The position numbers and the translations under genes are program-made. 64,000 nt of DNA from Methanomassiliicoccaceae archaeon. Lineage in GTDB: Archaea; Thermoplasmatota; Thermoplasmata; Methanomassiliicoccales; Methanomassiliicoccaceae. The first letter of the stretch is position 1. Every line of letters starts with the position of its first letter. The stretch is from assembly GCA_040776945.1 (NCBI GenBank), contig JAXGZN010000002.1:832001-896000 (forward strand), written 5' to 3'. The notes under the pieces were generated by a model. It had not been told where the DNA came from and did no database searches. It saw only the letters and a list, made by a program, of their open reading frames with translations. This document shows positions 31,077 through 47,050 of this stretch, one piece after another.

Positions 31077-33692
31077 ATGTCACAATATGAAGCGGTGCAG
31101 GCCGAGAGGAAGTGGCAGCAGAAGTGGAAGGAGTGGGAGATCTATCGTTTCGATCCATCCTCTTCCAAGCCCGTGTACAGCATCGACAACCCGCCCAGGT
31201 ACACCTCTGGCTCGCTGCACCTTGGGCACGCCACCGGCTACTCGCTCATCGACTTCGCCGCTCGTTACAAGAGGATGCGCGGCTACAACGTGTTCTTCCC
31301 CCTGTGCTTCGACGTCAACGGCACGCCCACGGAGGTTAAGGTGGAGAAGAAACACGGAATCACCAAGCTGACCGTTCCCCGCCAGGAGTACATCCGCCTG
31401 TGCTCGGAGTTCGCCAACTCGTTCATCGACGAGATGACCGAGCAGTTCGAGGTTCTGGGGGAGAGCATGGACCCGTCCGTCTATTACCAGACGGACGCTC
31501 CCTACTACCGGCGCATCACGCAGATAACCTTCCTCAGGCTGTTCAAGAGGGGGCTCGTCTACAAGGGCACCTATCCCGTGAACTGGTGCCCCAGCTGCAT
31601 CACGGCCCTGGCGGACGCGGAGGTCGAGTACTCCGACAACATGACCAAGCTGAACTACATCAGGTTCCGGATGAAGGGGTGCGATGAGGACGTCATCATC
31701 GCCACCACCAGGCCGGAGCTGCTCTCCGCCTGCCAGCTCGTGGCGGTGTCGCCGGAGGACCGGGAGAAGGAGCGGCTGGTGGGAAGGACCCTGCTGACGC
31801 CGATCTACAACAAGGAGATCAAGGTCATAGCCGACGAAAAGGTCGACCCGGCCTTCGGCACCGGGGTGGTCATGATCTGCACCATCGGGGACAAGACGGA
31901 CCTCGAGTGGGTCATGAAGTACGGCCTGCCGCTGGACAAGGCCATCGACGAGCAGGGCCGGATGACCCGCCTGGCCGGCAAGTACGAGGGGTTGTCCGTC
32001 AAGGATGCTAAGGCGGCCATAATAGAGGATCTCAAGGCCGCAGGGCTCATCGTCAGGCAGGACACCGTGAAGCAGAACGTGGGAGGGTGCTGGCGCTGCC
32101 ATGCTACAATCGAGTTCCTCCAGGTCCCCCAATGGTTCCTGAAGACCATGGACTTCAAGGACCAAGTGCTGAAGCTCGCCGACGAGGTGCAGTGGCATCC
32201 CGAGTTCATGAAGGTGCGGCTCAAGGACTGGATCAACAGCCTGCAGTGGGACTGGGTGATCTCGAGGCAGCGGTTCTTCGCTACGCCCATACCGCTGTGG
32301 GAGTGCGAGGACTGCGGGCACATCGTGCCGGCCAAGGAGGAGGACTGTTATGTCGATCCCACGGTGGACAGGCCGCCCATGGACCGTTGCCCGCTGTGCG
32401 GCGGAGCGCTGATCGGCTGCCGGGACGTCTTCGATACCTGGATGGACTCGAGCATATCGCCGCTGTACAACACCTTCTGGGACCGAGACATGGGCATGTT
32501 CGAGCGCCTCTACCCGATGTCCATGAGGCCGCAGAGCCATGACATCATCAGAACCTGGGCGTTCTATACCCTCCTGAGATGCTACCTGATGACCGACGAG
32601 CGCCCGTGGAACGACATCATGATCCATGGGTTCATCATGTCCCCGGACGGTACGCCGATGCATTCCTCGCTGGGCAACGTCATCGACCCGGTGCCGATCC
32701 TCAAGGAGTACGGCGCCGACGCGCTGCGGTACTACGCCTGCACCTGCGCGCTCGGGGAGGATAACGCTTTCCGGGAGAAGGACGTCATCCGCGGAAAGCG
32801 CCTGGCGACCAAGCTGTGGAACATCGGCAAGTTCACCGGGATGGTGGTGAAGAGCCGTCCGGAGATGCGCGAACTGCAGCCCCTGGACCGGTGGATCCTC
32901 AGCCGCTTCTCCAAGGTGGTGAGGGCCGCCACGCAGTTCTACGAGAGCTACCAGTTCGACAAGGCTATGAGGGAGGTCGAGGACTTCGCCTGGCATGAGT
33001 ACGCCGATCACTATCTCGAGCTTGTCAAATACCGCACCCGGGAGGGGGACGGCGGCGTCAGGTTCACGCTGTACACCATCACCCTGGGCATCGCAAAGAT
33101 GCTCGCTCCCCTGATGCCGCACGTGACCGAGGACATCTACCAGGACTTCGCCTCGATGGACGGGGCGAAGAGCATCCATGTGTCCGCGTGGCCGGAGCCG
33201 GTGCTGTTCTCCGATGAGGACGAGGCGCAGGGCGAGCTGGTGAAGGACGTGGTCAGCGCCATCCGATCGTGGAAGGCGGAGCGAAAGCTGCCGCTGAACA
33301 AGGAGATGGAGCTGATCGAGCTCATCGGGCCGTCGGCACTGTCCTTGAAGGGCTACGAGAAGGACATCCTGGAGACCTCGCGGTCCAGGGAGCTTAAGAT
33401 CGTGGCCGAGGCCGCGCTGGAGGAGAAGGTCGTGGCCGTCAAGCCGGTCAAGTCCAAGATCGGGCCGACCTTCAAGGCCAAGGGCAAGGAGGTCCTCCAG
33501 CTTCTCGAGGACATCGATCCGCAGCAGGCCGCGGCCGCCCTGGAGAATGGCGCGCTCGACCTTGCGCTCTCGGACGGGAGCGTCGTCTCCCTGGACCCGA
33601 GCTTCGTGGAGGTGCAGAGGAAGCTCACCCTCGAGGGGAAGGCCGTTGAGACTCTGCAGGTCAGGGACGTGCTCATCGCGCTGTCTCCCTGA
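31077..33692 (+). CDS. valS: valyl-tRNA synthetase
   Basis: HLGH, DWVISRQR, DTWMDSS, PMHSSLGN (KMSKS variant), YGADALR. Confidence 0.95.
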   Translation: MSQYEAVQAERKWQQKWKEWEIYRFDPSSSKPVYSIDNPPRYTSGSLHLGHATGYSLIDFAARYKRMRGYNVFFPLCFDVNGTPTEVKVEKKHGITKLTVPRQEYIRLCSEFANSFIDEMTEQFEVLGESMDPSVYYQTDAPYYRRITQITFLRLFKRGLVYKGTYPVNWCPSCITALADAEVEYSDNMTKLNYIRFRMKGCDEDVIIATTRPELLSACQLVAVSPEDREKERLVGRTLLTPIYNKEIKVIADEKVDPAFGTGVVMICTIGDKTDLEWVMKYGLPLDKAIDEQGRMTRLAGKYEGLSVKDAKAAIIEDLKAAGLIVRQDTVKQNVGGCWRCHATIEFLQVPQWFLKTMDFKDQVLKLADEVQWHPEFMKVRLKDWINSLQWDWVISRQRFFATPIPLWECEDCGHIVPAKEEDCYVDPTVDRPPMDRCPLCGGALIGCRDVFDTWMDSSISPLYNTFWDRDMGMFERLYPMSMRPQSHDIIRTWAFYTLLRCYLMTDERPWNDIMIHGFIMSPDGTPMHSSLGNVIDPVPILKEYGADALRYYACTCALGEDNAFREKDVIRGKRLATKLWNIGKFTGMVVKSRPEMRELQPLDRWILSRFSKVVRAATQFYESYQFDKAMREVEDFAWHEYADHYLELVKYRTREGDGGVRFTLYTITLGIAKMLAPLMPHVTEDIYQDFASMDGAKSIHVSAWPEPVLFSDEDEAQGELVKDVVSAIRSWKAERKLPLNKEMELIELIGPSALSLKGYEKDILETSRSRELKIVAEAALEEKVVAVKPVKSKIGPTFKAKGKEVLQLLEDIDPQQAAAALENGALDLALSDGSVVSLDPSFVEVQRKLTLEGKAVETLQVRDVLIALSP

Positions 33693-33770: not shown

Positions 33771-33846
33771 GCGGGCGTAGTGTAGTTGGTTATCACTTGA
33801 CCTTGCCAAGGTTAGAACACGGGTTCGAATCCCGTCGCCCGCACCA
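33771..33846 (+). tRNA. tRNA-Gly(GCC), CCA encoded
   Basis: Acceptor GCGGGCG/CGCCCGC, anticodon arm TGACC-TTGCCAA-GGTTA, T-arm ACGGG-TTCGAAT-CCCGT. Confidence 0.96.
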
Positions 33847-34186
33847 CCAACCATATCCAGGTGGGTCCATTTTTTTCAATCAGGGGCGGATTGGAACCTG
33901 GCTGCGTCTGGCTCGGTTTTCGGGGTATTATCGCCACCGTCCAAACACGCTGTGCTTCTGCGATCCTCTGCTCGTTCTTCTTGCGCGCGTTGTAAGTCTC
34001 GGTCGTCTTGCTCGTGGCGTGCCCCATCATCTTCGATGTCGAGTCTAGCGGCACCCCTTGGTCGAGGCGGTTCTGACCGAAGGTCCGGCGGCAGACCCGG
34101 AGGTCGAAGTCGACCCCGACCTCTTCCTTGACGATGGACTGGAGGTCCGTCGTCCCGTTGATCGAGAACTGCCCGCTATGCCGATT
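33812..34186 (-). pseudogene. C-terminal remnant of a tyrosine recombinase/integrase
   Basis: Manual translation: VGVDFDLRVCRRTFG..GVPLDSTSKMMGHATSKTTETY (box II-like, GH, catalytic Tyr). N-terminal part absent; abuts the tRNA 3' end. Confidence 0.8.
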
Positions 34187-35047
34187 CTAGCCATCTAAAT
34201 TCTTTAAAAACTGATTGACCAGTACATAGCTTTCAGCTTGTGTCCTCCTCTTCTGTTCCTCATCAGCACTATAAAGAAAATTGCCAACCCACGAAGGTCC
34301 TTCAGCCTCAATTGAACGGAACTTTTGCATAATATTTCCTATACCTATTCTCATACTTGGTTCAGCTAGGAATGGTCGGACAATTTGACTTACATCACTC
34401 GGGCTTTCCAAACATTGAGAGATTACCGTAAAAATATCGTAAGCGTCCTTCTCTTTATACCGCTCACCCAGAACTACACCCTTCATACCAATGCAGCCCG
34501 CGATATCAAGCATCTGTATCTGAGCGCTAGATTCACCATCGCCAGGAAGGGTTCCTTGAATCTCTTTTCTAAAGTTGTGCTGAAATGCGATGTCACATCC
34601 ATTTGCAATTCTCGCTGGAAGCGAAGGTTGAACCTTCCTATGTCTGTGATTATGCAATTCTTCTGTCCCACATGTGAGAAAATCAATAGAAATCAGATAT
34701 TCCCGTCCATCGGACCTGGAAGTAATTCCTCTCTCAAAACTGAATAAGATGGGTTGCCCATCCATCCCATGTCGCATCGAATAACCACGTTCCTGAATCA
34801 GGTCGATGATTGTGGCGTACTCATCGTTCCTTACTAATTCAGGGTTAACCGCAATGTCAATATCAATTGATCCAACATGAGGGAACCCCCCTCTGCCGAA
34901 TTCCTCTATCAGGAAAAACGGTGCCCAGCCTCCAACAAGCACTAGCGCATCCCTATAGGAGTATAATGTCAGAGATAACTCCAGGAGCGCAGATAAGGAT
35001 GCATCAGTTATGCCTCCACCATAGTCTGTAGATAACCTAGGTGGCAC
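34187..35047 (-). CDS. nucleotidyltransferase (AbiEii/type IV TA toxin-like)
   Basis: LVGGWA, HVGSIDIDI, IDFL, K...ERYKEKDAYDI. Confidence 0.8.
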   Translation of the reverse strand: MPPRLSTDYGGGITDASLSALLELSLTLYSYRDALVLVGGWAPFFLIEEFGRGGFPHVGSIDIDIAVNPELVRNDEYATIIDLIQERGYSMRHGMDGQPILFSFERGITSRSDGREYLISIDFLTCGTEELHNHRHRKVQPSLPARIANGCDIAFQHNFRKEIQGTLPGDGESSAQIQMLDIAGCIGMKGVVLGERYKEKDAYDIFTVISQCLESPSDVSQIVRPFLAEPSMRIGIGNIMQKFRSIEAEGPSWVGNFLYSADEEQKRRTQAESYVLVNQFLKNLDG

Positions 35048-35049
35048 TT

Positions 35050-36066
35050 CTAAACCCCCAAGATCTTTTCTCGGATGGCATCGGCCTGCTCCCTACCCCT
35101 TTGTGGGTAATTGAAAAGGTCCAGATAAAGTTGAAGATTGGACACAACTTTTACACCATCAATTGTTTGTGTGTTTCTTAATATTCCATCATCTCTGGGA
35201 GTTATCAAGTAGACGTTACCCCCGAACTCTACTGGCTCCAATTCAAGGGCGTTCTTCAATGCGTCATTTTTGTTAACATAAATGTATGTGTCCGTTGACC
35301 TAACCACAGGGAGGACCAGTCGAGCTGCAGCCCCTAGAGTGATCGCATAATCGCAATCAGGGAGTTGCCTCAGTTTTGGAAATATTTCATCGTAGCCCTT
35401 AAAAGGGGAGTAGTATCCAGTGATTTTTTGATCGTTATACCTATAGCTACTGACCAATAGATCTAGCAAGCCTGAAGGGTCGGAAAGCTTGATCGCTCCT
35501 CTCCTTTTATCAACATAATTATATGTCTCCAGGCCATCCAGAACCTTATAAACCTGAGCGAGACTAACTGATGAACTATCTGAAAGCTCCTGCATCGTCC
35601 ATTCCTTTTTCGGATCATTTAACATGCACCTTATTACCCAGTTACTTTTTGTAGATAACAAGTTTTTTTGCTTTCTCTCAATTTTATGTTTGTTATCATT
35701 TCCCCAGAGGTTGATAAAAATACTATCGAATTTTAAATAGGCATTTCCAGAAAGATCAATGCATCCAATATTGGATCTCTCACAAAATTCCTTCCCGCGC
35801 TCACTAATAAAGGGAGCGACCAGGATGGGGTAGAAATTGTCTGTAGACCTATTGCTCAATCTGCCGACATATTCCGCAATAACTCTGGGCTCTCCAGATG
35901 ATTTGAACTCAAGATATAGGGTTTTTTTCTTTTTTCCTATCCTCAAGTTGGCTACTGAGTCTGCATAGTCATCTCTTTCGAGTTTAACTTTATCGCTAAC
36001 CCACTCTAATTTTCCTACCTGAGACAACAACTTTTCAACAGTTTTCTTATACTCGATTTCTTCCAT
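35050..36066 (-). CDS. AbiEi-like type IV TA antitoxin/transcriptional regulator
   Basis: VAPFIS..IDLSGNAY N-domain, wHTH, C-terminal VSNLQLYLDL..PQRGREQA; 2 nt upstream of the nucleotidyltransferase. Confidence 0.8.
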   Translation of the reverse strand: MEEIEYKKTVEKLLSQVGKLEWVSDKVKLERDDYADSVANLRIGKKKKTLYLEFKSSGEPRVIAEYVGRLSNRSTDNFYPILVAPFISERGKEFCERSNIGCIDLSGNAYLKFDSIFINLWGNDNKHKIERKQKNLLSTKSNWVIRCMLNDPKKEWTMQELSDSSSVSLAQVYKVLDGLETYNYVDKRRGAIKLSDPSGLLDLLVSSYRYNDQKITGYYSPFKGYDEIFPKLRQLPDCDYAITLGAAARLVLPVVRSTDTYIYVNKNDALKNALELEPVEFGGNVYLITPRDDGILRNTQTIDGVKVVSNLQLYLDLFNYPQRGREQADAIREKILGV

Positions 36067-36242
36067 ATTTTTCACTTATATTGCTATTTTCACCAATTGG
36101 TAAAAAATCGTATAGGTTATAAAGTATATCAATTATAGCAATCGAAATTACTGCTACAAACACTACTTCTCCACGATATGCATGAAATGAGGAAAGGTGG
36201 TGAGCTAATTGCACCTTAGAGTTAGAGAAAAGTGAAGACGAT

Positions 36243-36857
36243 CTAGATGAGTGGGTTCGAACGCACAATCCTTTGAATGTCTGAAGCAAATTCAACCATG
36301 TCGCCAAAGTCAAGCAGCATGAACCCATCTTGGCACGATATCGCTTCCATTTTTTGTTCTGATTGCTCAAGGTCCGCCCGAGTGTACCTCTTAGATAGGA
36401 CTACAATTTTTTTATAAATGCCCTTATCGCGTTTCCAGACCTCTTCATTGAACGGACCGGAAATGATTGCATCTATGATATTGAGCAATCCTATGATTGA
36501 TCGGTTCCGCGATCTTCTGATAGCTTCCCATGAGTACCCAGAGAACACAATTATTGAGATTTCGCGCTTATGGAGTCTCTCGCACATGTGAAGGAGCGCT
36601 TCAGCCTGCTGGAACGGCTCACCGCCGGAGATTGTGACCCCTTCACATTGGGTCCTCTGACACAACTCGACCAGTTTATCTGCGAACATTGTATGCTCCA
36701 TGAGGTGCCTAGGCTCGTGAGGTTGGTAAGCCGGGTTCGCACAGCCTGTGCATCCAAGGGTGCAACCCTGAACCCAAACCACGACCCTCCTCCCCGGCCC
36801 ATTGATTGTGCTACCAGCCGCAAGGGCCGCCACATTGAGCAATGGTTCCAGTGCCAT
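36243..36857 (-). CDS. short radical SAM protein (NrdG/activase-like)
   Basis: NGPGRR.VVWVQGCTLGCTGC, GVTISGGEPFQQ, FSGY. Confidence 0.87.
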   Translation of the reverse strand: MALEPLLNVAALAAGSTINGPGRRVVVWVQGCTLGCTGCANPAYQPHEPRHLMEHTMFADKLVELCQRTQCEGVTISGGEPFQQAEALLHMCERLHKREISIIVFSGYSWEAIRRSRNRSIIGLLNIIDAIISGPFNEEVWKRDKGIYKKIVVLSKRYTRADLEQSEQKMEAISCQDGFMLLDFGDMVEFASDIQRIVRSNPLI

Positions 36858-36858
36858 C

Positions 36859-38715
36859 TCACTCCTCTAAGAGTTCGAAGACTATGCCTTTCCCATCCTC
36901 AACGCAGCTGGCCCTGATGCTTCGTCCCTTCATCAAGAACTGCTTGTTCTCGAATATGTATCTGGCCAGGGGGTCGATAAGGTCCCTCTCCGCCGCATTA
37001 AGCAACCCACGCCCACCGTGGGAGATGTCGGCCCTCTTCTCCAAGTAATCATACAGCCTTTGGTCGAGCACTAGTCTTACATCATACTTGGATTGGATCG
37101 TCTCCTGTAGGGGGGCCAGCTTCTTTTTGATAATTTCCCGCCTAAACTCCTCACTGTTGACGGGATTGAAGACGATGATGTTCTCCCCTATTCGGTTGAG
37201 GAGCTCAGGACGCCTTAGTTCCTTGTTGAAATGGTCCTTTACCTTGTGACGGAACTCTTTCTCCAGGTCGCAACCTTCCACCTCAATGCCAACCTCAGAG
37301 GCTCCGATATTGCTGGTGAATATGATGATCGTTTCGGAGAAGTAGGCGGTCACGCCCTTCCCATCGGTGAGCCTCCCATCCTCAAGGATCTGCAGGAACT
37401 TATCAAGGATTCGCGGATGGGCCTTCTCTATCTCGTCGAAGAGAAGCACGCTGAACGGTCTTTCCAGGACGGCGTTGATCAATTGCCCGCCTTCCTCAAA
37501 CCCAACATAGCCGGGCGGTGGGCCGATCAGACGCTGGTCGGATTCCTCATGACTGTACTCGCTCATGTCGAAGCGTATGCATGCGTTCTCATCTCCGAAC
37601 AAGAATTCCGCAGTGGCCTTGGCGAGCTCGGTCTTACCCACTCCGGTCGGACCGACGAAGAACAGGGCGCCTTTTGGCTTTGACATCTTCGAGGAGTGCT
37701 GTATTCCCGATAGGCCCATGGCTGCCTTGATGATGGTGTTGACCACGTGTTCGACGGCCTTGTCCTGTCCGACCACCCGCTTTTTCAGGGAAAGATCTGC
37801 GTTGCGTAGCTTCTCCTGAGAAAGCTCTTCCCAGGGCGACCTCTTCTCGCCAAAACGGTAGAGGTTAAGCAGTCTCTCCGGAGTAAGACCTCGGTTGTCC
37901 CGCGCCAGCCTGACCATCTGGATCAGATCTACGGTTTTCATCCCTTCAGTCATATCGGCCAGTTCATCCATCGCTTGGTCTCTTGTCTTGTCTTGAGTGG
38001 CCTTTAGGTTCAGGTCTTCTAGATGACGCTCAAAGAACCCTATCCTGGTCTTCTTCTCCGGGACTCCCAGGTTGAACAATTTGATCCTAGGGTCTGGCTG
38101 ATAGAACGAGGGCGGAATAGATGCTAGATTGGCTGTTATTAACATGATCGTAGCCGGAGGGGTGTCGGTCACGTTCCCTTGTCGGCCGAGACCCTCGCGC
38201 CCGCACATGAGCATCGATAACCGCTCCAACAAACAGCGGTCCTCTTGGGCCAGGGGCCTCTGTACCGCACCGAACTGGTAGTCGGTCCAATCCACTATTA
38301 TAGCCACGGCCTGATCATAATAGGGGAGGGCTTGTTCAAGGGCTCCGACCAGATCGCCGATTTCCTTGAGCGATGGGAGGTCATCGTCCAGGCCTTGAGG
38401 TTCACCCGCATCGTACTTTTCGCCCTCCACATCTTGTGTCAAGCTCCCTCTCCACCAAGTGTTGAACCTCCGTCTTTCATCATCGGACCGGAATTTTAGG
38501 CCGACAATGGGGTTCCAGACGCCCACCACAGAAAAGCCACTATCGTGTAAGGTCCTGTCGAGGTAGTGAGCCAGGAGCACATACCTAGTACCCTCGTCCG
38601 TTTTAATTGTGAACTCATCGCGAGTGTTTCCGTAGACAACAATCCCCTTCCTGAACCTGGCCTCCCTTGCCAAGTTCTCAAATTGCCGCTCCATTTTAGA
38701 AACGTCTCCTGCCAT
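36859..38715 (-). CDS. ClpA/B-like AAA+ ATPase (one intact D2-type domain, degenerate N-terminal domain)
   Basis: VVGQDKA, FVGPTGVGKTELAK, DMSEY, GPPPGYVG, LFDEIEKAH, GRLTD, RPELLNR. Confidence 0.88.
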   Translation of the reverse strand: MAGDVSKMERQFENLAREARFRKGIVVYGNTRDEFTIKTDEGTRYVLLAHYLDRTLHDSGFSVVGVWNPIVGLKFRSDDERRRFNTWWRGSLTQDVEGEKYDAGEPQGLDDDLPSLKEIGDLVGALEQALPYYDQAVAIIVDWTDYQFGAVQRPLAQEDRCLLERLSMLMCGREGLGRQGNVTDTPPATIMLITANLASIPPSFYQPDPRIKLFNLGVPEKKTRIGFFERHLEDLNLKATQDKTRDQAMDELADMTEGMKTVDLIQMVRLARDNRGLTPERLLNLYRFGEKRSPWEELSQEKLRNADLSLKKRVVGQDKAVEHVVNTIIKAAMGLSGIQHSSKMSKPKGALFFVGPTGVGKTELAKATAEFLFGDENACIRFDMSEYSHEESDQRLIGPPPGYVGFEEGGQLINAVLERPFSVLLFDEIEKAHPRILDKFLQILEDGRLTDGKGVTAYFSETIIIFTSNIGASEVGIEVEGCDLEKEFRHKVKDHFNKELRRPELLNRIGENIIVFNPVNSEEFRREIIKKKLAPLQETIQSKYDVRLVLDQRLYDYLEKRADISHGGRGLLNAAERDLIDPLARYIFENKQFLMKGRSIRASCVEDGKGIVFELLEE

Positions 38716-38718
38716 TGG

Positions 38719-39588
38719 TCATCGCCTCGCTTCTCTTACCTGCGCTGCGCCATGCGGCAGGTCCTTTGCTCCCTTCTTTATCTTGTAAGGATTGTGCCAG
38801 TTGAACTGCTCGATCTCCCCATCGGTGCCATCTGATCTGAGCCGCTCTAACACTGCATCCACAGCGTCCTTGCATGTTTCACCGATGAATCCATCTAAAT
38901 CGAAACCAATCCTGCACTGGTCGTTTATCTCGAACCTTACCTTCTTGCCGGCAGGCGTGGTCGCGAGGATTTCCACACGTCCATCCTTTAAAACCGGTCC
39001 GGAGATCACATAGTTGGAGGCGCGAAGGCCACCCAGCAATCGGCGGACAAGTTCCTTTCGGACCTCTTCCTGCAGGTCTCTCGCCTGAGACTCTCTTGCG
39101 CCGTTCAGGGTCTCCTCCACCATCGACTCAAGAGTGACCAACGACAATGGGACGTCCGTCATTTTTTCTAGCCGAGCGATATTACTTTGATGCGCCTTCT
39201 GGCCTTCCTTATTCTTGATGGAAATGGATTTTAGTTGGTTGATGGTCCTGGAAAGGAGCTCGTCCACTTTCCTTCGCTCCTCGCCCCACATTTGCTTCTT
39301 CGCCCTCGCCTCGGTCTGGATTGCGCTCACCTGAGCGATAGCGAGACGGGCGCTCTGTAGCGCTTGGTCTGGAGACAGAGACATCTGACTATACGCTTCA
39401 CCAACCAGCTTATCCAGCTCTGATGACTCACTAACAAAACCAGACGTGGAGAGGTTTTGCTTCCCTTGTTCCAAAAGTGCTGCCGTCCGTTCCAGTAAGG
39501 CCTGACACTCTTCCCTTACCTGGGACCTCCGAGCCTCTTCGCGCATCCTCTCCATTTGCTTTACGCTGATGTATCCCCCACCGCTCAT
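38719..39588 (-). CDS. coiled-coil hypothetical protein, C-terminus DUF2997-like
   Basis: Helical N-terminal two thirds; FDLDGFIGETC motif. Confidence 0.7.
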   Translation of the reverse strand: MSGGGYISVKQMERMREEARRSQVREECQALLERTAALLEQGKQNLSTSGFVSESSELDKLVGEAYSQMSLSPDQALQSARLAIAQVSAIQTEARAKKQMWGEERRKVDELLSRTINQLKSISIKNKEGQKAHQSNIARLEKMTDVPLSLVTLESMVEETLNGARESQARDLQEEVRKELVRRLLGGLRASNYVISGPVLKDGRVEILATTPAGKKVRFEINDQCRIGFDLDGFIGETCKDAVDAVLERLRSDGTDGEIEQFNWHNPYKIKKGAKDLPHGAAQVREARR

Positions 39589-42320
39589 GTTCTTCCCCCA
39601 ATCTTGCTGAAATCGCCGAGTTGAGGAATGATGACCTCGCCATCGACAATTGAGTACTTTATCAACCGAGAGGCCACCTTTGTCGCCATATCGGGGTGCT
39701 CCCTGAAATGGTCGCGATAAAGGTCGTTAGATAAAATATACATATTCTTGTCCAAGGCCATCTGGATCACGTGATGATCATCGTTCTGCCCGGACGGTGC
39801 CTGTATCAGATACTTTTTTCTTTCGTTAGAGAAGTACCTCTTCAGAGCTTCGAATTTCTTCTTGCCGGCTTTATCTTTAGTCAGGGTACTCTGAATGCTC
39901 GAACCGATGACGATGAAAACTTCATCACAGGAGTATTTGCCCAATAGCGCTTCGAAGGTCCTTATGACGTTTTCCACGCTAACAGAGCCATCATTCTCAT
40001 TGTAGCGGGCAATGTTGCTGCCGTCCACGACCACTCGAATCCCTGAGACTGGATTCTTGTTGGCATCCATCTTATTTGCCACGATTTTGTCCCAGACGCC
40101 GAGCGTGCGGAGATTTTTCTCGAATCGCTTTGGCTCCCGGACCGAAGTATCGAAGACGGAAACAATGTCGCTATCGGTTATCTTTACCCTCTCAGTAAGC
40201 GCGCTACGCCTGGCCGAGATGATGAAGGATAGCCAGAGTTCGACGTCTCGATCATCTTTCGGACTTAACGAGCGCGAAAGCTGAGTAAGGTGATTGCTTA
40301 GAATTGCGTCAGGCATCATCCCGGCTCTGTTGAGCTCCTCCAGGTTGTTCATCATGGTGGACAATTGCCGCTCGTTTAGTGGTTTGGGCAGCTCCCGTGG
40401 GGGCGACACCAGTGAACTTAGATCGATCTGAACTCCCATTCCGGTCAAGGCCTCATGAATCGAGCGTACCACGACCCTGGTTTCAGGATCTAGTATATCT
40501 AAGGGCTCCTCGAAAATGCGCTTGATTATGTTTGTAAGAGAGAGCTTATCGACCTCTGCTCCGAGCCTGTGCATCTGCACGCAGAGTTTCAGCGCTTCCT
40601 GGGCTTCCTTTCCACTAACTTCGACCTCGCTGATGACCTCACAAGCCTTGGAGGCAAGGAGCATCCTCTGATCGGGTGATTGTATCTTGGAAAGTTGTTC
40701 GACCACTTTTGGTCCCCACTTGATGTTGTCCCTAGAGGTCAAACCTAGAATGGATCCAGCTCTCAAAGAGACGATCAGCTGAACGTATCTATCCCATAAG
40801 GGAGATGAGGCGAAGATAGCACCCCTCTTCTCCAGCACCTCCACCTGCGCGGCCATTCGAGCATCGAACTTGGATTGCTCCTTCGGACGCTTCATCTCTA
40901 TGGAGGACAGGTACAGGTTTGAGTTACCCTTCACTACGCGTTCGGGCAAGGCAATCAATGAATCCCAATTGGCCATGTTCATGTAGCGTTCCCAAATGGC
41001 CAGCTCAGCTTTGGACATCTCTGCTGCGCCTCTAGATGGTTCCATCTTTATGAGGAGCCGTATGATGTCATCAAACTCGTCGTTCGACGGAGCAGAGGCA
41101 CTGATGGCCTCTAGGCACCTCGGCAGATTACTCTCGGAAGGATTGATTACCAACAGAGCTTGGGCCAAACCTTTGTTCATCGGAAGGCGAGACATGCTCA
41201 TGGCGATCTCTTTCTTTATGCTATCCGCTGCCTCTATCCCCTGCTCAGCAAAGACGGGGACGCCGAGACCCTCATCCTGCAGGCTCAGTGCACTAATCAC
41301 TTGTTTATCAGTGGCTAGGATAACTCTACCAGGTTGCTGTAGGTCCAGATGAATTATCTGCACATCATTCCTAGTCACTCCCTTGTCGCCTTCTGGAGTC
41401 TTCGACGGTACGAACACAGTCTTGGGCAATAAGGAAGGATGTTGCATCAGTATGCTCCAAGCCTCTCCGAACAGGGCGCACCATTGAGCGCCCCTTAGGT
41501 AATCGCCCAGGTTGACATTTCCGGCATGCTGGAGCTGACAATCGTCGGGTAGCTCACTGGAATAGGTTTGTCTCCATGATAGGCGTGGTTCAGCATCCCT
41601 CCTCAACGACAGGATGGCTTGTTGAAGCGCCCCATTCTCCCTTGCCACCTTTAGGACAGACTTATCAAGAGTGCTCCGATGATCATCACCCACTGGTGTG
41701 TCGCTGCTGCGGAAGATTACTTTACCTGGGATTAGTAGGATATCCCCTATGACCTGAAGTTTTATCTGAGCACAGGCGGTGGTCGCATTGCTGTAAACCT
41801 GCTCTCCTTTTTCCAGTATCTTGCAATTCTTCAGATGGTTGTAGATTATCCCAAGGGGCGGTTCCTCAACACCCGCGACCCATTCTTCCCCAATATCTCT
41901 ATTGTTTTTGAATATCCTTGAGCCGGCATACCACTCCTTGGTTCCCGGATCAAACAGTATGCTATCCTCCACAATCCTTGGATCACCTAGTATGCGACCT
42001 TTCTCGAACATCCCCCGTCCCTTATCAGTGACCCGATAGAATCCAGGTGTGGTGCGCTGGAGGGCACCAATATCCTCAAGTTGCTTGGCCGCCTCCATCA
42101 GGAATGTCTCATCACCAACTCCAAGTCTCGTAGCTATCTCGCTCACCGACGGAGATGGCTTGATTTTGACCAGCGGAGCCAGGATTGCCCATTCCAACAG
42201 ATTGACCTTTCGGTCTCTCCTGAGGTCAGCCTTGAAGTAAGCCTGAATAACGGGATGTTCGAATTTGGCACCCGCAATTATGGTAAAAGGAGTCCAAGCC
42301 ACACGCTTAGGCTTATCCAA
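39585..42320 (-). CDS. large protein: N-terminal wHTH, C-terminal Regnase/Zc3h12a-type PIN (NYN) ribonuclease
   Basis: SVSEIATRLG..YRVTDKG wHTH; VVVDGSNIA, NDDHHVI, ILSNDLYRD. Confidence 0.82.
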   Translation of the reverse strand: MDKPKRVAWTPFTIIAGAKFEHPVIQAYFKADLRRDRKVNLLEWAILAPLVKIKPSPSVSEIATRLGVGDETFLMEAAKQLEDIGALQRTTPGFYRVTDKGRGMFEKGRILGDPRIVEDSILFDPGTKEWYAGSRIFKNNRDIGEEWVAGVEEPPLGIIYNHLKNCKILEKGEQVYSNATTACAQIKLQVIGDILLIPGKVIFRSSDTPVGDDHRSTLDKSVLKVARENGALQQAILSLRRDAEPRLSWRQTYSSELPDDCQLQHAGNVNLGDYLRGAQWCALFGEAWSILMQHPSLLPKTVFVPSKTPEGDKGVTRNDVQIIHLDLQQPGRVILATDKQVISALSLQDEGLGVPVFAEQGIEAADSIKKEIAMSMSRLPMNKGLAQALLVINPSESNLPRCLEAISASAPSNDEFDDIIRLLIKMEPSRGAAEMSKAELAIWERYMNMANWDSLIALPERVVKGNSNLYLSSIEMKRPKEQSKFDARMAAQVEVLEKRGAIFASSPLWDRYVQLIVSLRAGSILGLTSRDNIKWGPKVVEQLSKIQSPDQRMLLASKACEVISEVEVSGKEAQEALKLCVQMHRLGAEVDKLSLTNIIKRIFEEPLDILDPETRVVVRSIHEALTGMGVQIDLSSLVSPPRELPKPLNERQLSTMMNNLEELNRAGMMPDAILSNHLTQLSRSLSPKDDRDVELWLSFIISARRSALTERVKITDSDIVSVFDTSVREPKRFEKNLRTLGVWDKIVANKMDANKNPVSGIRVVVDGSNIARYNENDGSVSVENVIRTFEALLGKYSCDEVFIVIGSSIQSTLTKDKAGKKKFEALKRYFSNERKKYLIQAPSGQNDDHHVIQMALDKNMYILSNDLYRDHFREHPDMATKVASRLIKYSIVDGEVIIPQLGDFSKIGGRT

Positions 42321-45300
42321 GCTCCTCCCCCCTTACATAGCCATAGCCGCTCTCCCGCCGCTCGGCCATACCTATAATATCGCGGTAAGAGTAACGGTCC
42401 TCAGTCTGTCCATCGCAGCATATTTTAACCTTCACTTCTTCGAACGATTCCCTTGAGCCTACCACAAAGAGCAGCGTTCGGGCTCGAGAGATGGCGACAT
42501 TGATTCTCCGAAAATCTTTGACGAATTGCGTCACCCTTCCATTGGGGGGCGAGGAGACCAGGCTCGCGATTATGATGTCTCGTTCCATGCCCTGGAATCT
42601 GTCTACCGTCCCTACTCTCAGATCGAACCCCTGGAGCTTCTTCTCTTGCTTCAGTCGATTTACGAGGTCCCACAGCCTTCTCTCTTGGCCGGCGTAGAAG
42701 GAGATTATTCCTACTCCGATCGTTTTGTCCGTCGGTAATGAGGTCTTCTGGGCGCCCAATTGTCTCAATATGCGGCCAATCAGCTCTACCTCATAATCGT
42801 TGTATCTTGAACGGAAGCGGCCCTCTTCCTTGCCCTCAAAGTTACGGACGGGTTTACCGCCTATCATCCTATAGGACGATTCGACCCAAACTAGGTGGGC
42901 GTTCTTGGAAGCCAGTTCACCATGCTCGTTACGCAGAGAGAACTCGTTCTTGCGCTCGTTGTCAGGGTCTTTCAAACCCATTGTGAGCTTGTAACCGCTT
43001 GGATAAAACTGATTGATGGCGCCCATGATGGCTGTGTGCATCCTATACTGCTTTGTCAAGCGAGCCTTCAGTACATCCTCGGCTTGAGTGAACATTTCTT
43101 CAAAATATGATGTTGTCACCAGCTTCTCGTAACGCTTGAGCTTCTGATAAATCTCCTCGCTGCTCACGCTCTCATCGAAGGTCATTTCTTCTTCAGTGAG
43201 ACGGAACGAAGGCGGCAACTGGTGGTGGTCACCAACCAGTATGATCTGCTTGCCAACCAGCATAGGCATGAGCAGTTCTGGTGGGGTTGCTTTTGAGACC
43301 TCGTCGATGATCACCAGATCGAATTCTTTCTGGGAACCCCAGAACTTGTACTTTCCAGTCTCTGAACAGGTGGCCCCGACAATGTTGGATTGAGCCAGGT
43401 AGACTTTCCTGAGGCTTTCTCGGTCAATGTCATCGGTGGCTCCCAGCCTCTCCTTCCACTCCTTCTGGACCTCGTGCCATTCTTCCGAAAGCCCTGCTCC
43501 TTCCTTGAGCGTTTCAAGAGCGTGCCTGAGTCGCTGATGCCATGACAGGTCCCGATAGGAATCGTGGGGATGGGCGAGCTCGGTCTGCTCCTTTAGATGC
43601 TGTTCATATACTGCGGTTATCGACAGCAAGTGGGCAGCACGCTCCTTCTTCCAACCTTCCACCCTCTTTGCCAGTTCGCCTTCCTCGACCTCTGATATCA
43701 CAAGCACTTCTGAGGCGCGTTCCTTTTCCTTCAAGGCGCTTTCGAGCTCCTTTCTATCGGAATCCGCAATCGTTTCAAAACCGCCCTTAAGGCCAGTCAG
43801 ATGATTGCGCTGGGAGGGCGAGATAGTGAGGTCGAAAGTTTGTAGTTGTGTCAGAAGTGCTTTTAACTCTGCAAGGGCCGGCTCCAACTTGCGGTTCGGA
43901 CCGAGAGAGGATCGTAGTTCAGCTAAACGATGTTCTGATTCCTCTCCCCCCTGCAGATGATAGAGGTCGATGCAATCAATAAGAATTGGGTCAAGCGAGC
44001 GGAGATGATTGCGCCAGGCGTCGTTCACGGTACGATCATCTGCCCCCTTAAGGTCCAATAATTTCCGATTTATCTCACCCAGCTCTTTCTGTGCTGTTGA
44101 TACCTGGACACAGTTCTGATCGATCGCGTCTGCAATCAAATTTACGAGCACACGCTTCCTAGCATCTAGATCCTTTGCTTCCGCGGATTTGGTCTCGGCT
44201 AACGGAATGAGGGATGATAATGCCTGTACCTTGTCGATTGCAGTCGTAGCATGCTCCTTCAGCTCCATGTTCTTGACCAGGATGACTGGTAGCACATCCT
44301 TCACCCAAGTGGAGTCATCAGCATGCTTCCTGCCCAGCAAGCCAGAGCATAACGATTCTAGCAATCGCGGCTCCAACTCAGCCAGTCTTTGAATATCGCT
44401 GATACGTTGGGGGAGCCTGCCTTCTCTCACTAACCGGGATAGAAGTTCGACATTTCGCTCATCCAGTGCTACCTTTTCCTGAATTTTCAGTACCCTGTCC
44501 GATATGCTTTTCAAGTTTGATTTCTGTGCTTCGATTGCTTGGCTTGACACCTTTTGAGCCTGCACCATCCCCTTTTCCACTGGCAAGTTCTTTTCGATCC
44601 AATATGAGGCGACCTCAGCCGCTTTTATCTGGCGAATCAACTGACCTTGTGTCTCCACCGTCATAGTTAATGAGGATCTGACCCCAGTGAGCCAGTGCTG
44701 AACCACATTGGCTTCGACGAATGGCTCCCCGTCCTCAGTGATGTTTCTTTTAGGGCCAAGCCGGATTGGCCTCATGTTCACGGCGAACTCCTTCCTCCCC
44801 CCCATTAGCCTGCTGAGGGCGTTGTCGACGGCAAGGTTGGTTTGGGATGCAATGAGCACCCTGCCTCCCCTCTGGGTCACCTGATTGCAGAGTTCGGCGA
44901 TGACAGTGGTTTTTCCAGTCCCTGGAGGCCCCTGTATAAGGCAGAGATCGGGGGTGTTGATCGCTTTTTTGAGGGCCTCCATCTGGCCTTCGTTCAACCT
45001 ATCTTCAATGAGCGTCGATTTCTGAATGCCTTCGTCCCGCGTTGGTAGCCTTGCCTGCCCCACGTCGAATATGAAGTCCTCGAGGTGAGGGTTTGCCGAT
45101 TTTCCCTCCTTCAATCGATTTATGGCTTTTTGTTGAAGGGCTAGGGGCAGTTCGTCCAGGGCTACCGAATTAACCAGTAAGCCTGTAGCGGGCAACGCCA
45201 ATAGTTGGTCATCTCTCTTCTGCTCTTTGTCCTCCATCTCATCTAGCGCGAAGATAGGGTCAAGGTCGACTCGGATTATTGACTGGACATTATCACCATT

Positions 45301-46107
45301 CTTTGACTTGGAGGGAGGACGAGCTTTCTGTCCTGCCGCAATCTTACCCAAACGAATGGGCTCCCCGTCTTCCTCCGACCAGATCCAATTTCTACTTTCG
45401 GGGATGGCGTGGTCGAGGACGTAGACCTCGTCCTCACAACGGAACGCCTTATGGGAGTTTTCCGATCTGTTCTTCACCGATAACTCGATTTCCGCCGTGA
45501 CCGGTCCGGTCCTCACTAGATTTCCGTAAGCTATCCAAGCCCGCCGTCTTTGAACTACATCGAGGCTTTCATCGAGATATGCTTCCCAACTCTCGAGGCG
45601 CCTCTGAAGTTCATCTCGCCTCGGGGGAAGGGCGGTCAGGAAATCGATGTCAGAGGAGAACATGAATGAGTTATCTTCACCAGATTCAGACTCGAGGACC
45701 AGGACAGTGCATGTTATCAAGCCCTCCTTATCTGTGCTCGGCCTCTTTGACACGATGGAATAATACGCCTTTATTATGGTTAGACGACCGTTCGTTCTCA
45801 CACATTCGAAAACCAGGTCGTCCTCCATTCTCATGAAAGCCGAGTGGAGACTGCTCATCGGATCTAGACGGAATCGTAGTCGGCAGAACTTTTCATTCTT
45901 CTTCTCCCCCACGAAGATGTTTTCGACAAGGAAACGAGTTGAGGCGCCGTTAAGGGAGCGAAGTTTCTCCACTATCTCCTTTCCATCTTTTTGATCGACC
46001 TTTATCTTTTCTAGGTCCAATAACAGGACCAACCTTCTGGTCAATTCTCTCTGCCTGATCCCTTGATAATCTTGAGCTACATCTCCAAAGTCGATGATCG
46101 ACGCCAA
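42313..46107 (-). CDS. SF1B helicase, Upf1/DNA2/NAM7-like, with long helical insertion
   Basis: QGPPGTGKT, SQTNLAVDN, DEVSK, VGDHHQLPP, QYRMH, TVDRFQG, RINVAISRA. Confidence 0.92.
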   Translation of the reverse strand: MASIIDFGDVAQDYQGIRQRELTRRLVLLLDLEKIKVDQKDGKEIVEKLRSLNGASTRFLVENIFVGEKKNEKFCRLRFRLDPMSSLHSAFMRMEDDLVFECVRTNGRLTIIKAYYSIVSKRPSTDKEGLITCTVLVLESESGEDNSFMFSSDIDFLTALPPRRDELQRRLESWEAYLDESLDVVQRRRAWIAYGNLVRTGPVTAEIELSVKNRSENSHKAFRCEDEVYVLDHAIPESRNWIWSEEDGEPIRLGKIAAGQKARPPSKSKNGDNVQSIIRVDLDPIFALDEMEDKEQKRDDQLLALPATGLLVNSVALDELPLALQQKAINRLKEGKSANPHLEDFIFDVGQARLPTRDEGIQKSTLIEDRLNEGQMEALKKAINTPDLCLIQGPPGTGKTTVIAELCNQVTQRGGRVLIASQTNLAVDNALSRLMGGRKEFAVNMRPIRLGPKRNITEDGEPFVEANVVQHWLTGVRSSLTMTVETQGQLIRQIKAAEVASYWIEKNLPVEKGMVQAQKVSSQAIEAQKSNLKSISDRVLKIQEKVALDERNVELLSRLVREGRLPQRISDIQRLAELEPRLLESLCSGLLGRKHADDSTWVKDVLPVILVKNMELKEHATTAIDKVQALSSLIPLAETKSAEAKDLDARKRVLVNLIADAIDQNCVQVSTAQKELGEINRKLLDLKGADDRTVNDAWRNHLRSLDPILIDCIDLYHLQGGEESEHRLAELRSSLGPNRKLEPALAELKALLTQLQTFDLTISPSQRNHLTGLKGGFETIADSDRKELESALKEKERASEVLVISEVEEGELAKRVEGWKKERAAHLLSITAVYEQHLKEQTELAHPHDSYRDLSWHQRLRHALETLKEGAGLSEEWHEVQKEWKERLGATDDIDRESLRKVYLAQSNIVGATCSETGKYKFWGSQKEFDLVIIDEVSKATPPELLMPMLVGKQIILVGDHHQLPPSFRLTEEEMTFDESVSSEEIYQKLKRYEKLVTTSYFEEMFTQAEDVLKARLTKQYRMHTAIMGAINQFYPSGYKLTMGLKDPDNERKNEFSLRNEHGELASKNAHLVWVESSYRMIGGKPVRNFEGKEEGRFRSRYNDYEVELIGRILRQLGAQKTSLPTDKTIGVGIISFYAGQERRLWDLVNRLKQEKKLQGFDLRVGTVDRFQGMERDIIIASLVSSPPNGRVTQFVKDFRRINVAISRARTLLFVVGSRESFEEVKVKICCDGQTEDRYSYRDIIGMAERRESGYGYVRGEELG

Positions 46108-46529
46108 TTAATCCCCAATGAGGATAATTATACGACTATTAAAATAACTAAGCGACTCGTGTTTAAATTTAGGATTCTGAAGCATTGGTGGCACCAACGT
46201 CGATTCGCCTAGATGTGGTTATTAAGTTCCTAAATTATCGGTCTTGTTGCAAAAGTCATCTGACGAATTCTGAAGCCTATTTATCATTTATTATCCATAT
46301 CTCTATCAAAATATAATAGTGTGGTCCAACCTATTGCCAGTTGTTCAGAAAGACGATAGGTTGGTGACCACGATGACAGCAATTACGAGCGAAGTATTCA
46401 CCTATGTGATAAGTGCTCCCCGCGAAATAGTCGCGCGTTCATGCCAACCAACAGGGCCACGCTGATCGAATGTCATGAGCGCGATATGCCTCTCGCCCCC
46501 AAGCCCGTTCTTTTTGCAACGGCAACCCT

Positions 46530-47050
46530 TTAGCTATCCCTCGACCGATCGCTCCTGGGGAAGAGCGCCTGCGGGATCATCGACAGCATGTACGGATGCC
46601 TCAGCACGTACGACGGGCGGAGATAGAACGATACGTAGGCCTTGGCCAGCTTCCTCACCACCGCCTTGCGCCCGATGCCCATGCGGTCGCAGTCGATGAC
46701 CGGTTCCACGGCCGTGAAGCGGCTATAGTCCTCTGTCGACAGTGGATCATCGGCTCTCAGCTCGTCGAATATCAGCGTCCCCGGGAAGGGGCCAATGGAG
46801 GTGTCCTCGATCATTTCCGGCCCATGATCACGCCCGATGGGGAGACGGCAGCCGATCACGATGCTCGTTCGGCCAGCCATCGCCGACATGGCGAAAGGCA
46901 AGCGGCGGCGAACATCGCTCCGCTCAAAAGAGATATGCTACTTGCCGACCATATAGTGCCTGGCGTCAACGATCTGGTGCCTGACCGGGCGCAAGATCTT
47001 GTTCGAGCCGATGCAGCGGAACGGTCGTTAAGCATGACCGTTGTGGAAGC
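46530..47050 (-). pseudogene. decayed B12-binding-type radical SAM gene fragment
   Basis: PFPGT and AYVSFYLRP C-terminal motifs; upstream frame degenerate with an internal stop and no intact CxxxCxxC. Confidence 0.5.

Follow-up and report, generated by a model that had tools for sequence, protein, structure and literature searches.

We analyzed a five-gene operon on the minus strand of a 64,000-nucleotide (nt) stretch of DNA from a Methanomassiliicoccaceae archaeon (GenBank assembly GCA_040776945.1, contig JAXGZN010000002.1, positions 832,001 to 896,000; hereafter the window, to whose coordinates positions refer unless a locus handle precedes them). Its first two genes encode a Upf1-like helicase and a large protein that ends in a Zc3h12a/Regnase-type NYN nuclease domain, and three further genes follow directly. 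Our results suggest, with a probability of about 0.6, that the operon is a derivative of the type I Mokosh defence system in which the helicase feeds an NYN nuclease and the remaining genes might form an accessory licensing module; the rare five-gene cassette is probably antiviral. The features of the locus, with the basis of each assignment in brackets, are as follows (aa, amino acids; SAM, S-adenosylmethionine).

46108..46330, minus strand: A+T-rich sequence ahead of gene 1 that may hold its promoter and ribosome-binding site (sequence, inferred)
42313..46107, minus strand: gene 1, predicted MkoA-family Upf1-like helicase of superfamily 1B (SF1B), 1264 aa, TTG start (Pfam, PADLOC and PDB matches)
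39585..42320, minus strand: gene 2, predicted MkoB-type N-terminal domain plus NYN RNase, 911 aa (Pfam, HMMER, model)
41976..42281, minus strand: MkoB-type N-terminal (winged-helix-like) domain, gene 2 residues 14-115 (HMMER, BLASTP)
39624..40037, minus strand: Zc3h12a/Regnase-type NYN (PIN-like) nuclease domain, gene 2 residues 762-899 (Pfam, PDB, Foldseek)
38719..39588, minus strand: gene 3, 289 aa, of no known family (model, alignment)
36859..38715, minus strand: gene 4, two-module AAA+ protein, 618 aa (Pfam, NCBIfam and PDB matches)
36243..36857, minus strand: gene 5, NrdG/PflA-type radical-SAM enzyme, 204 aa (Pfam, alignment)
33771..33846, plus strand: tRNA-Gly(GCC), at the edge of a low-G+C island

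The genes are tightly packed: genes 1 and 2 overlap by 8 nt and genes 2 and 3 by 4 nt, with 3 nt between genes 3 and 4 and 1 nt between genes 4 and 5. A first-pass annotation, made from the sequence alone, had placed a 911-aa protein and an overlapping upstream helicase gene at 39585..46107, and the two frames were found to be as stated. The hexamer GGGGAT, 5 nt ahead of the TTG start of gene 1, is a putative ribosome-binding site. Contigs of at least 99% identity from four metatranscriptome libraries span all five genes, several contigs end at 46060-46100, just within the start of gene 1, and 46177-46627 is covered by no RNA-library contig. This pattern hints only weakly at expression of the operon from the A+T-rich sequence upstream.

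The protein encoded by gene 1 matched Pfam AAA_11 (152 bits) and AAA_12 (122 bits), and its best solved relatives among PDB sequences were DNA2 (E = 1.6e-27), IGHMBP2 (6e-25) and UPF1 (2xzo, 3e-23), Sen1 also being matched. Because these are its closest solved relatives, the label of Upf1-family helicase that had been attached to this gene is right at the level of the SF1B Upf1-like group. The PADLOC models of the Mokosh helicase MkoA matched gene 1 with E values of 3e-109 (PDLC03920) and 6.5e-92 (PDLC03921), the same level as the canonical two-gene Mokosh helicase of a cyanobacterial plasmid (4e-114). Walker A (GPPGTGKT) was located at residues 393-400 and Walker B (DE) at 935-936, with about 500 aa inserted between them, and both motifs and R1208 were invariant across nine gene 1 homologues. 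A language-model search with residues 1-360 returned weak leads alone (0.87), to 1B-domain clusters. None of the 21 Pfam matches (E 0.01 or better) was to a kinase family, and none was to a UPF1 CH (zinc-knuckle) domain. The PADLOC scores in particular place gene 1 in the Mokosh MkoA family of Upf1-like helicases.

At the C-terminus of gene 2, residues 762-899 matched positions 4-141 of the 154 in Pfam PF11977, RNase_Zc3h12a, at 48.9 bits (cut-off 23; E = 7.4e-13), the sole PF11977 match within the 2.17-Mb genome. When gene 2 was compared with PDB sequences by phmmer, it matched ZC3H12B (6sjd, E = 5e-5), ZC3H12C (7ndi, 1e-4) and ZC3H12A (3v32, 4e-3), the whole Zc3h12 range extending from 5e-5 to 7e-3, and PRORP2 was matched weakly. 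The motifs VVVDGSNIA, NDDHHVI and ILSNDLYRD, which the first-pass annotation had aligned by eye when it placed a Regnase-1/Zc3h12a-type domain at the end of the 911-aa protein, paired in the phmmer alignment with the corresponding Zc3h12 motifs, as it had stated. In an alignment of 15 full-length homologues the NYN site was kept at D848, S/T864 and D866 in 15/15, at D766, N769, D847 and N865 in 14/15 and at D870 in 12/15, the row that lacks D766 and N769 being another type of PIN; the acidic catalytic positions said to be present are indeed retained. By the printed alignment we take these acidic and polar residues to be the Regnase-1 catalytic positions. No zf-CCCH match was found in gene 2, the NYN match ending at residue 899 and the protein at 911.

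A structural model led to the same assignment. The protein consists of a beta-rich region at about residues 250-360, an all-helical region at 362-755 and the NYN domain at the C-terminus, and the AlphaFold2 model, built on 15 homologues, had a predicted local distance difference test score (pLDDT) of 82.3. Foldseek matched the model to ZC3H12B (6sjd_A) with E = 9.4e-6, a template-modelling score (TM) by target of 0.64 and a root-mean-square deviation (rmsd) of 3.4 over 150 columns, and to Regnase-1 (5h9v_A) and MCPIP1 (3v33_B) with TM by target of 0.68 and 0.70, respectively. Across ZC3H12B/C, Regnase-1/MCPIP1 and KHNYN (8wzc), TM by target was 0.62-0.73 at 16-24% identity (0.64-0.73 for ZC3H12B/C and Regnase-1), in agreement with the PIN-like fold that had been expected of the C-terminal domain. 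The top Foldseek matches of the whole model were PRORP1/2 (E = 1.8e-7), and because these superpositions had an rmsd of 24-31 over about 480-560 columns, gene 2 and PRORP are alike in parts only; gene 2 had no Pfam PRORP or PPR match. Altogether, the results confirmed that gene 2 ends in a Zc3h12a/Regnase-type NYN domain with intact acidic residues. Fusions of the same domain with leucine-rich repeats (P0035), with a BrxL-type Lon protease (P0044) and with a BrxC/D-like ATPase (P0076) were seen as well, and the domain would seem to serve commonly as an effector module in defence proteins of prokaryotes.

The other end of gene 2 links it to Mokosh. In a HMMER search of 1.84 billion representatives, three proteins of 620-654 aa (P0080, P0086 and P0090) matched gene 2 over residues 12-128 only (E = 1.5e-4 to 2.9e-4); all three were assigned to MkoB by PADLOC (E = 2e-27 to 7e-37), and PLDc_2 was found in two of them. 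By BLASTP, gene 2 residues 14-115 aligned with residues 28-129 of the MkoB-type protein P0086 at 31% identity over 103 residues (E = 3e-12). Since gene 2 shares this N-terminal domain, its NYN domain stands where the PLD nuclease of MkoB stands, which bears out the earlier suggestion that a PIN domain takes the place of the PLD nuclease of Mokosh-like partners. Inspection of other loci showed that the MkoB-type N-terminal domain, next to MkoA helicases, carries PLD (L031), DarT (L032), PIN_4 (L003, L025 and L026) or NYN (the window and L004), which answers the question, raised by the first-pass annotation, of what other effectors occupy this position. In the PIN_4 and DarT proteins the shared domain matches PADLOC MkoB, as in gene 2 of the proteobacterial plasmid L025 (MkoB N-terminus E = 1.1e-5; PIN_4 71 bits). 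Furthermore, this NYN domain shares a single chain with an MkoA-like helicase (E about 1e-27) and a PD-(D/E)XK domain in two proteins of 1530-1547 aa (P0049 and P0053), which independently supports the idea that helicase and NYN are functionally linked. By sequence, gene 2 resembles MkoB but has an NYN nuclease in place of the PLD nuclease, and we propose that the MkoB-type N-terminal domain is an adaptor to the helicase.

The DarT form lies on a Nostoc plasmid (L032:4277-11025), where a BREX-1 locus holds, between its pglX and pglZ, inserted genes for an MkoA helicase, an MkoB-N::DarT fusion and an ADP-ribosylglycohydrolase, an arrangement that looks like a Mokosh-type helicase driving a DarTG-type effector.

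The three remaining genes encode a coiled-coil protein, an AAA+ protein and a radical-SAM enzyme. Gene 3 matched no family in Pfam, NCBIfam or PADLOC. Its model (pLDDT 80.7) consists of a helical bundle (residues 1-190), a small beta domain (194-253) and a disordered C-terminal tail, which holds the best-conserved residues of the protein, W264, N266 and P267 being invariant from archaea to proteobacteria. Foldseek searches of the PDB with this model gave no match at E 0.001 or better, and VIA-align returned only generic helical-bundle rows, with Z no higher than 10.1, and a match of middling quality between residues 172-253 and the C-terminal domain of T4 MotA (Z = 8.4-8.6).

Residues 294-600 of gene 4 are a module of the ClpB/ClpC D2 type, in which Walker A, Walker B and a GYVG pore loop are present (Pfam AAA_2, 169 bits, plus ClpB_D2-small; solved ClpB D2, E = 1e-81). 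The N-terminal 290 or so residues have no P-loop and look like a degenerate AAA module, with a weak match of residues 177-265 to VAT/Cdc48. Gene 4 does not have the ClpB/Hsp100 layout of two active AAA modules and a middle domain; the D2 module alone matches, and the score against the NCBIfam ClpB model was 277 bits compared to a cut-off of 1232. The AAA module also matched PADLOC PDC-M37B (2.6e-32) and DolB (4.7e-22).

Gene 5 matched Pfam Fer4_12 at 100 bits and pyruvate formate-lyase (PFL) activase at E = 8e-5, and C32-x3-C36-x2-C39 and GGEP were invariant in 12 sequences. Its scores lie below the NCBIfam equivalog cut-offs for both NrdG (83.2 vs 126.1 bits) and PFLA (54.3 vs 231.75). No glycyl-radical-type motif (RVxG[FY]) was seen when the five cassette translations were read by eye, with no search made. 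The catalytic motifs checked in genes 1, 2, 4 and 5 were all intact and conserved.

Scans seeded with the gene 2 alignment identified 12 loci, 4 in species genomes and 8 in metagenomes, and found no relative in viral contigs. The helicase gene lies directly upstream of gene 2 in all 12, and genes 3, 4 and 5 follow in the same order in all nine that extend past gene 2, the other three stopping at a contig end; L004, L007 and L008, among the nine, are near-identical copies. The hosts include methanogens and a Spirochaetaceae metagenome-assembled genome (MAG), the flanks differ at each locus, and a copy in a Methanocorpusculum MAG (L002:7516-16124) has decayed, with the frames of genes 1-4 broken and gene 5 intact. 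With gene 3 or the N-terminal half of gene 4 as the seed, four more archaeal loci (L023, L024, L029 and L030) were found, as well as nine plasmids, from four proteobacterial genera, among 72,556. An MkoA-like helicase and a large gene 2 were present upstream in 4/4 of these genome loci and in 4/4 plasmid lineages inspected, the plasmid genes being annotated, in order, as AAA domain protein, PIN domain-containing protein, hypothetical protein, AAA family ATPase and 4Fe-4S single cluster domain protein. The trio of genes 3-5 is absent from the canonical PLD Mokosh (L031) and from the DarT form (L032), and in the loci inspected genes 3-5 thus track the PIN/NYN type of gene 2, along with two divergent types in which the C-terminus of gene 2 could not be assigned. 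The first-pass annotation had described an operon-encoded pair; helicase and NYN protein do adjoin, but they are not a two-gene unit, since three conserved genes follow in every locus with enough DNA.

The cassette is sporadic. A word-based search of limited reach in a collection of 5.8 billion clusters gave four 90%-identity clusters for gene 2 and nine for the N-terminal family of gene 4, which was seen only in such cassettes among the loci inspected, and a language-model search suggested larger, mostly bacterial clusters of gene 3 look-alikes. Gene 3 was detected in 9/401 genomes of the phylum at E 0.001 or better, and one homologue came from a Hodarchaeota MAG. Relative to the window proteins, the AAA+ protein was 60-63% identical, the radical-SAM enzyme 38-44%, the helicase 36-38%, gene 3 30-34% and gene 2 22-31%, the lowest of the five, which suggests that the nuclease protein evolves fastest. 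In a helicase tree built by a quick search only, eight NYN-type cassettes formed one clade (Shimodaira-Hasegawa-like approximate likelihood ratio test, 100) with L003, whose gene 2 carries PIN_4 and not NYN, nested inside it, indicating an effector swap within the clade; the proteobacterial PIN_4 plasmids and the PLD plus DarT forms made up two other clades, with the deeper order unresolved.

The neighbours of the cassette are of defence type: an AbiEi-like gene (weakly matched) in the window and, elsewhere, a pVip-like gene with a kinase, ArdA, integrases and a prokaryotic Argonaute (pAgo). Together with the distribution described above, this shows that the cassette belongs to the accessory DNA, moves between domains of life and is found among defence genes. 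Straight after the cassette on an Acinetobacter plasmid (L025:12361-13865) lie genes for a thymidylate-kinase-like protein (PADLOC VakA, PDC-M51B) and a viperin-like radical-SAM protein. In genome G174 (L024:4895-7934, minus strand), 82 nt past the cassette and on the same strand, an RNase III gene (256 aa) overlaps that of a 758-aa Piwi-domain prokaryotic Argonaute, and in G061 an RNase III-RNase T fusion of 351 aa is encoded upstream of the divergent cassette (L023:18268-19323, minus strand) and is absent at L029 and L030. RNase III was rejected as a conserved partner because it flanks the cassette in L023 and L024 but not in L029 and L030, which are of the L023 type. Just downstream of the cassette in the Spirochaetaceae MAG (L004:12160-12939, minus strand) is a gene for a protein with a classical NYN domain (PF01936) and a LOTUS/OST-HTH domain.

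In the window, the operon lies inside a low-G+C island at about 34.0-46.3 kb (G+C 0.44-0.52 compared to about 0.60 around it), all of whose long open reading frames (ORFs) in the ORF list are on the minus strand. The island starts directly past tRNA-Gly(GCC), with a housekeeping class I aminoacyl-tRNA synthetase gene (31077-33692) on the left flank; the opposite flank also holds housekeeping genes, for AcnX, a SAM methyltransferase and a DEAD-box helicase. McrA was found in the 2.17-Mb host genome, so the host is a methanogen. In a same-genus genome the left flank is 79% identical up to window position 33862, 16 nt beyond tRNA-Gly, and the island genes were not found there by homology comparison; gene 3 was likewise not found in five other members of the host family, within the sample of 401 genomes of the phylum. 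These two absences indicate that the island is accessory DNA. Its far boundary is set by G+C alone, since the right flank is not syntenic in the same-genus genome and no direct repeat of the tRNA end was found on that side. By composition and distribution, the operon can be placed on an acquired island of a methanogenic archaeon.

The upstream edge of the island carries a repeat of about 156 nt (window about 46245-46400), which may be a small mobile element; it has a second copy of 81% identity at G000:C2:330570-330725 and at least four copies in the same-genus genome, three of them near contig ends. Downstream of the cassette (34187-36075, minus strand) two more island genes are perhaps an AbiE-like pair: the 341-aa protein has sub-threshold AbiEi_2 and TrmB matches (20 bits each), and the 286-aa protein, for which no family was matched, has an N-terminus that by eye resembles a minimal nucleotidyltransferase motif. 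In a second low-G+C islet (0.45; 6613-8223, minus strand) lies a gene whose 536-aa product carries a restriction endonuclease domain of the Mrr type (61 bits).

Statements taken here from cited papers rest on excerpts of those papers. Antiphage protection by Mokosh requires the ATP site of the helicase and the PLD site, and MkoA resembles Upf1 (10.1101/2022.05.11.491447). Nuclease-NTPase defence systems co-purify as complexes; the excerpt reports that type I Mokosh was not purified (10.1101/2025.07.10.664194). In animals, unwinding by UPF1 licenses Regnase-1 (PMC7145602), and MOV10L1 with PLD6/Zucchini has been proposed as the animal relative of Mokosh (10.1101/2022.12.12.520048). The origin of MkoA is placed in bacteria by a paper on Asgard defence, as excerpted, and we draw no conclusion on ancestry.

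Compared with type I Mokosh, the cassette has in common a helicase that scores at the canonical MkoA level, the MkoB N-terminal domain and the order of helicase then nuclease in overlapping frames. It differs in that its nuclease is a Zc3h12a NYN and not a PLD domain, that PADLOC MkoB models miss gene 2, and that a coiled-coil protein, a ClpB-type AAA+ protein and a radical-SAM enzyme are added; moreover, type I Mokosh is described, in the excerpts, with a serine-threonine kinase domain in the helicase gene, and none was detected in gene 1. With UPF1 and Regnase-1 it shares an Upf1-like SF1B helicase core and a Zc3h12a-type NYN endonuclease, and by analogy it is plausible that unwinding before cleavage is shared as well. 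However, Regnase-1 has a CCCH zinc finger after the NYN domain, whereas gene 2 ends about 12 residues past the NYN match, and its NYN domain is 22-24% identical to those of the animal proteins; UPF1 has a CH domain that binds UPF2, and none was detected in gene 1 by Pfam; and coupling in the cassette would be through the operon and the MkoB-type adaptor, with three extra partners. The UPF1/Regnase parallel drawn by the first-pass annotation therefore stands for the domain logic and does not extend to the CCCH finger or the CH domain.

The Mokosh pairing of helicase and nuclease is also mirrored in eukaryotic RNA-based defence by MOV10L1 and PLD6 (10.1101/2022.12.12.520048, excerpt), with a PLD nuclease there and an NYN nuclease here. 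PRORP1/2 share with gene 2 a helical-repeat region followed by an NYN metallonuclease, but differ in domain arrangement and Pfam matches, and the cassette sits on an acquired island. Dodola DolB and PDC-M37B resemble gene 4 over the AAA module only, its N-terminal half and partners being different. PADLOC models do not recognise the whole five-gene cassette. Thus, it is neither a canonical type I Mokosh nor an orthologue of Regnase/UPF1, and is like both in domain logic. We found no description of a PIN/NYN Mokosh variant or of the five-gene cassette in the literature searched, outside of which lay supplementary tables and subscription journals.

In the mechanism that we propose for this Mokosh derivative, the MkoB-type domain would tether the nuclease to the helicase, which would translocate on and unwind invader nucleic acid, most likely RNA, and feed single strands to the NYN active site, so that unwinding and then cutting would follow the same logic as UPF1 with Regnase-1. 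Since the members of this NYN family with solved structures are RNases, RNA is the likelier substrate. Cleavage of host RNA as well, leading to abortive infection, is a possible variant. Genes 3-5 might, speculatively, form a licensing module in which the unfoldase and the radical-SAM enzyme remodel or modify the product of gene 3 or gene 2, such that the nuclease is active on infection only; the idea arises from the presence of an unfoldase with an intact pore loop, a radical-SAM enzyme of protein-directed type and a small protein with an invariant disordered tail.

Several observations weigh against this reading. We infer the defence role, the target and the binding of helicase to RNase, and the licensing role of genes 3-5 is speculative. 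A candidate glycyl-radical site at G273 of gene 3 (KIKKG) was rejected because the glycine is absent in four proteobacterial copies; the only invariant residues near it are G236, C239, W264, N266 and P267. PADLOC MkoB models gave no match to gene 2 at E 0.01 or better, nor was there a PLDc match, and the link to MkoB consequently rests on the pairwise and library-wide matches over about 100 residues. In the divergent types L023 and L024, gene 2 has no recognisable nuclease: its C-terminus had only sub-threshold Pfam matches to DUF4145 (E = 0.019 and 0.15), no BLASTP similarity to the plasmid PIN proteins was found, and its N-terminus gave weak profile matches (E about 1e-3, probability 17-20%). 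The island yielded neither an integrase nor an att-like repeat. The RNA-library contigs over the operon attest to presence only and do not prove transcription. Finally, DNA enzymes occur among the Upf1-like SF1B helicases, the top PDB match of gene 1 being DNA2, and PIN-like nucleases may cleave DNA.

A more ambitious version, which we regard as unlikely, is that the cassette is a five-part RNA-surveillance immune machine, in which a Regnase-type RNase tethered to the helicase would be licensed by the radical-SAM enzyme and the ClpB-type unfoldase; these might, for instance, modify or unfold either the conserved gene 3 tail or some inhibitory portion of gene 2. Such a machine would be a prokaryotic counterpart, and possibly a forerunner, of the animal axis of UPF1 and NYN proteins, an idea suggested by the homologues in methanogens and in the Hodarchaeota MAG.

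We also think it unlikely that the cassette targets DNA, the helicase acting on single-stranded or damaged DNA in the manner of DNA2 or IGHMBP2 and the PIN-like domain being a structure-specific DNase. The position of DNA2 as best solved relative of the helicase is consistent with this, as are the DarT of a sister architecture, annotated as a single-stranded DNA (ssDNA) thymidine ADP-ribosyltransferase, and the protection by type II Mokosh, in the excerpt of one study, against one ssDNA phage only (10.1101/2025.07.10.664194). However, the solved members of the Zc3h12a NYN family are RNases bound to RNA (6sjd, 7ndj and 8wzc), and the nearest whole-protein fold matches of gene 2 are the PRORP RNases, both of which weigh against a DNA target.

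We consider it improbable that genes 1 and 2 are a self-sufficient helicase-RNase pair working like UPF1 with Regnase-1, to which the downstream genes are unrelated. Canonical type I Mokosh does consist of two genes (L031; 10.1101/2022.05.11.491447, excerpt), and the single-chain helicase-NYN fusions described above would fit such a pair. This explanation is at odds with the finding that genes 3-5 follow in the same order, in overlapping or abutting frames, in every PIN/NYN locus that extends far enough, whether from archaea, a spirochaete or proteobacterial plasmids, and that the N-terminal family of gene 4 is as rare as gene 2 (9 vs 4 clusters) and occurs only in such cassettes among those inspected.

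A role outside immunity, either as an addiction or maintenance module of mobile elements or in housekeeping RNA processing by a PRORP-like protein of helical repeat and NYN, seems quite improbable. Plasmid-borne copies would suit the former and the protein-only RNase P enzymes at the top of the Foldseek matches the latter, but the rmsd of 24-31 means that only parts are alike, and neither a PRORP nor a PPR family was matched in Pfam. Furthermore, the distribution is sporadic (gene 3 in 9/401 genomes of the phylum and 0/5 family members), a decayed copy exists (L002), defence models give the best matches and the neighbouring genes are of defence type. Least probable of all is that a Mokosh-like pair and an independent three-gene ClpB-type system (Dodola-like or PDC-M37-like) merely lie side by side: defence systems do cluster in islands and the AAA module of gene 4 does match PDC-M37B and DolB, but these matches cover the generic module only (residues 290-475), in every lineage seen the five genes have the same order and spacing between flanks that differ each time, and the trio is missing from the PLD and DarT forms and tracks the PIN/NYN type.

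Mokosh is widespread and its mechanism is unsolved, type I having resisted purification in one study (10.1101/2025.07.10.664194, excerpt). The PIN/NYN forms come with a radical-SAM enzyme and an unfoldase, which points to a layer of control or a chemistry for which we found no description in Mokosh, and the proteobacterial plasmid copies, such as those of Photobacterium toruni, Polaromonas or Moellerella, make the cassette testable in ordinary laboratory hosts. If the five-part machine were real, it would be the first role in antiviral defence for radical-SAM enzymes of the glycyl-radical-activase type. For the Mokosh family, the MkoB N-terminal domain would be a portable adaptor that hangs PLD, DarT, PIN_4 and NYN effectors on MkoA-type helicases, and the NYN form would be a second prokaryotic mirror of a eukaryotic helicase-nuclease RNA pathway, that of UPF1 and Regnase-1, beside the one already drawn between Mokosh and MOV10L1/PLD6.

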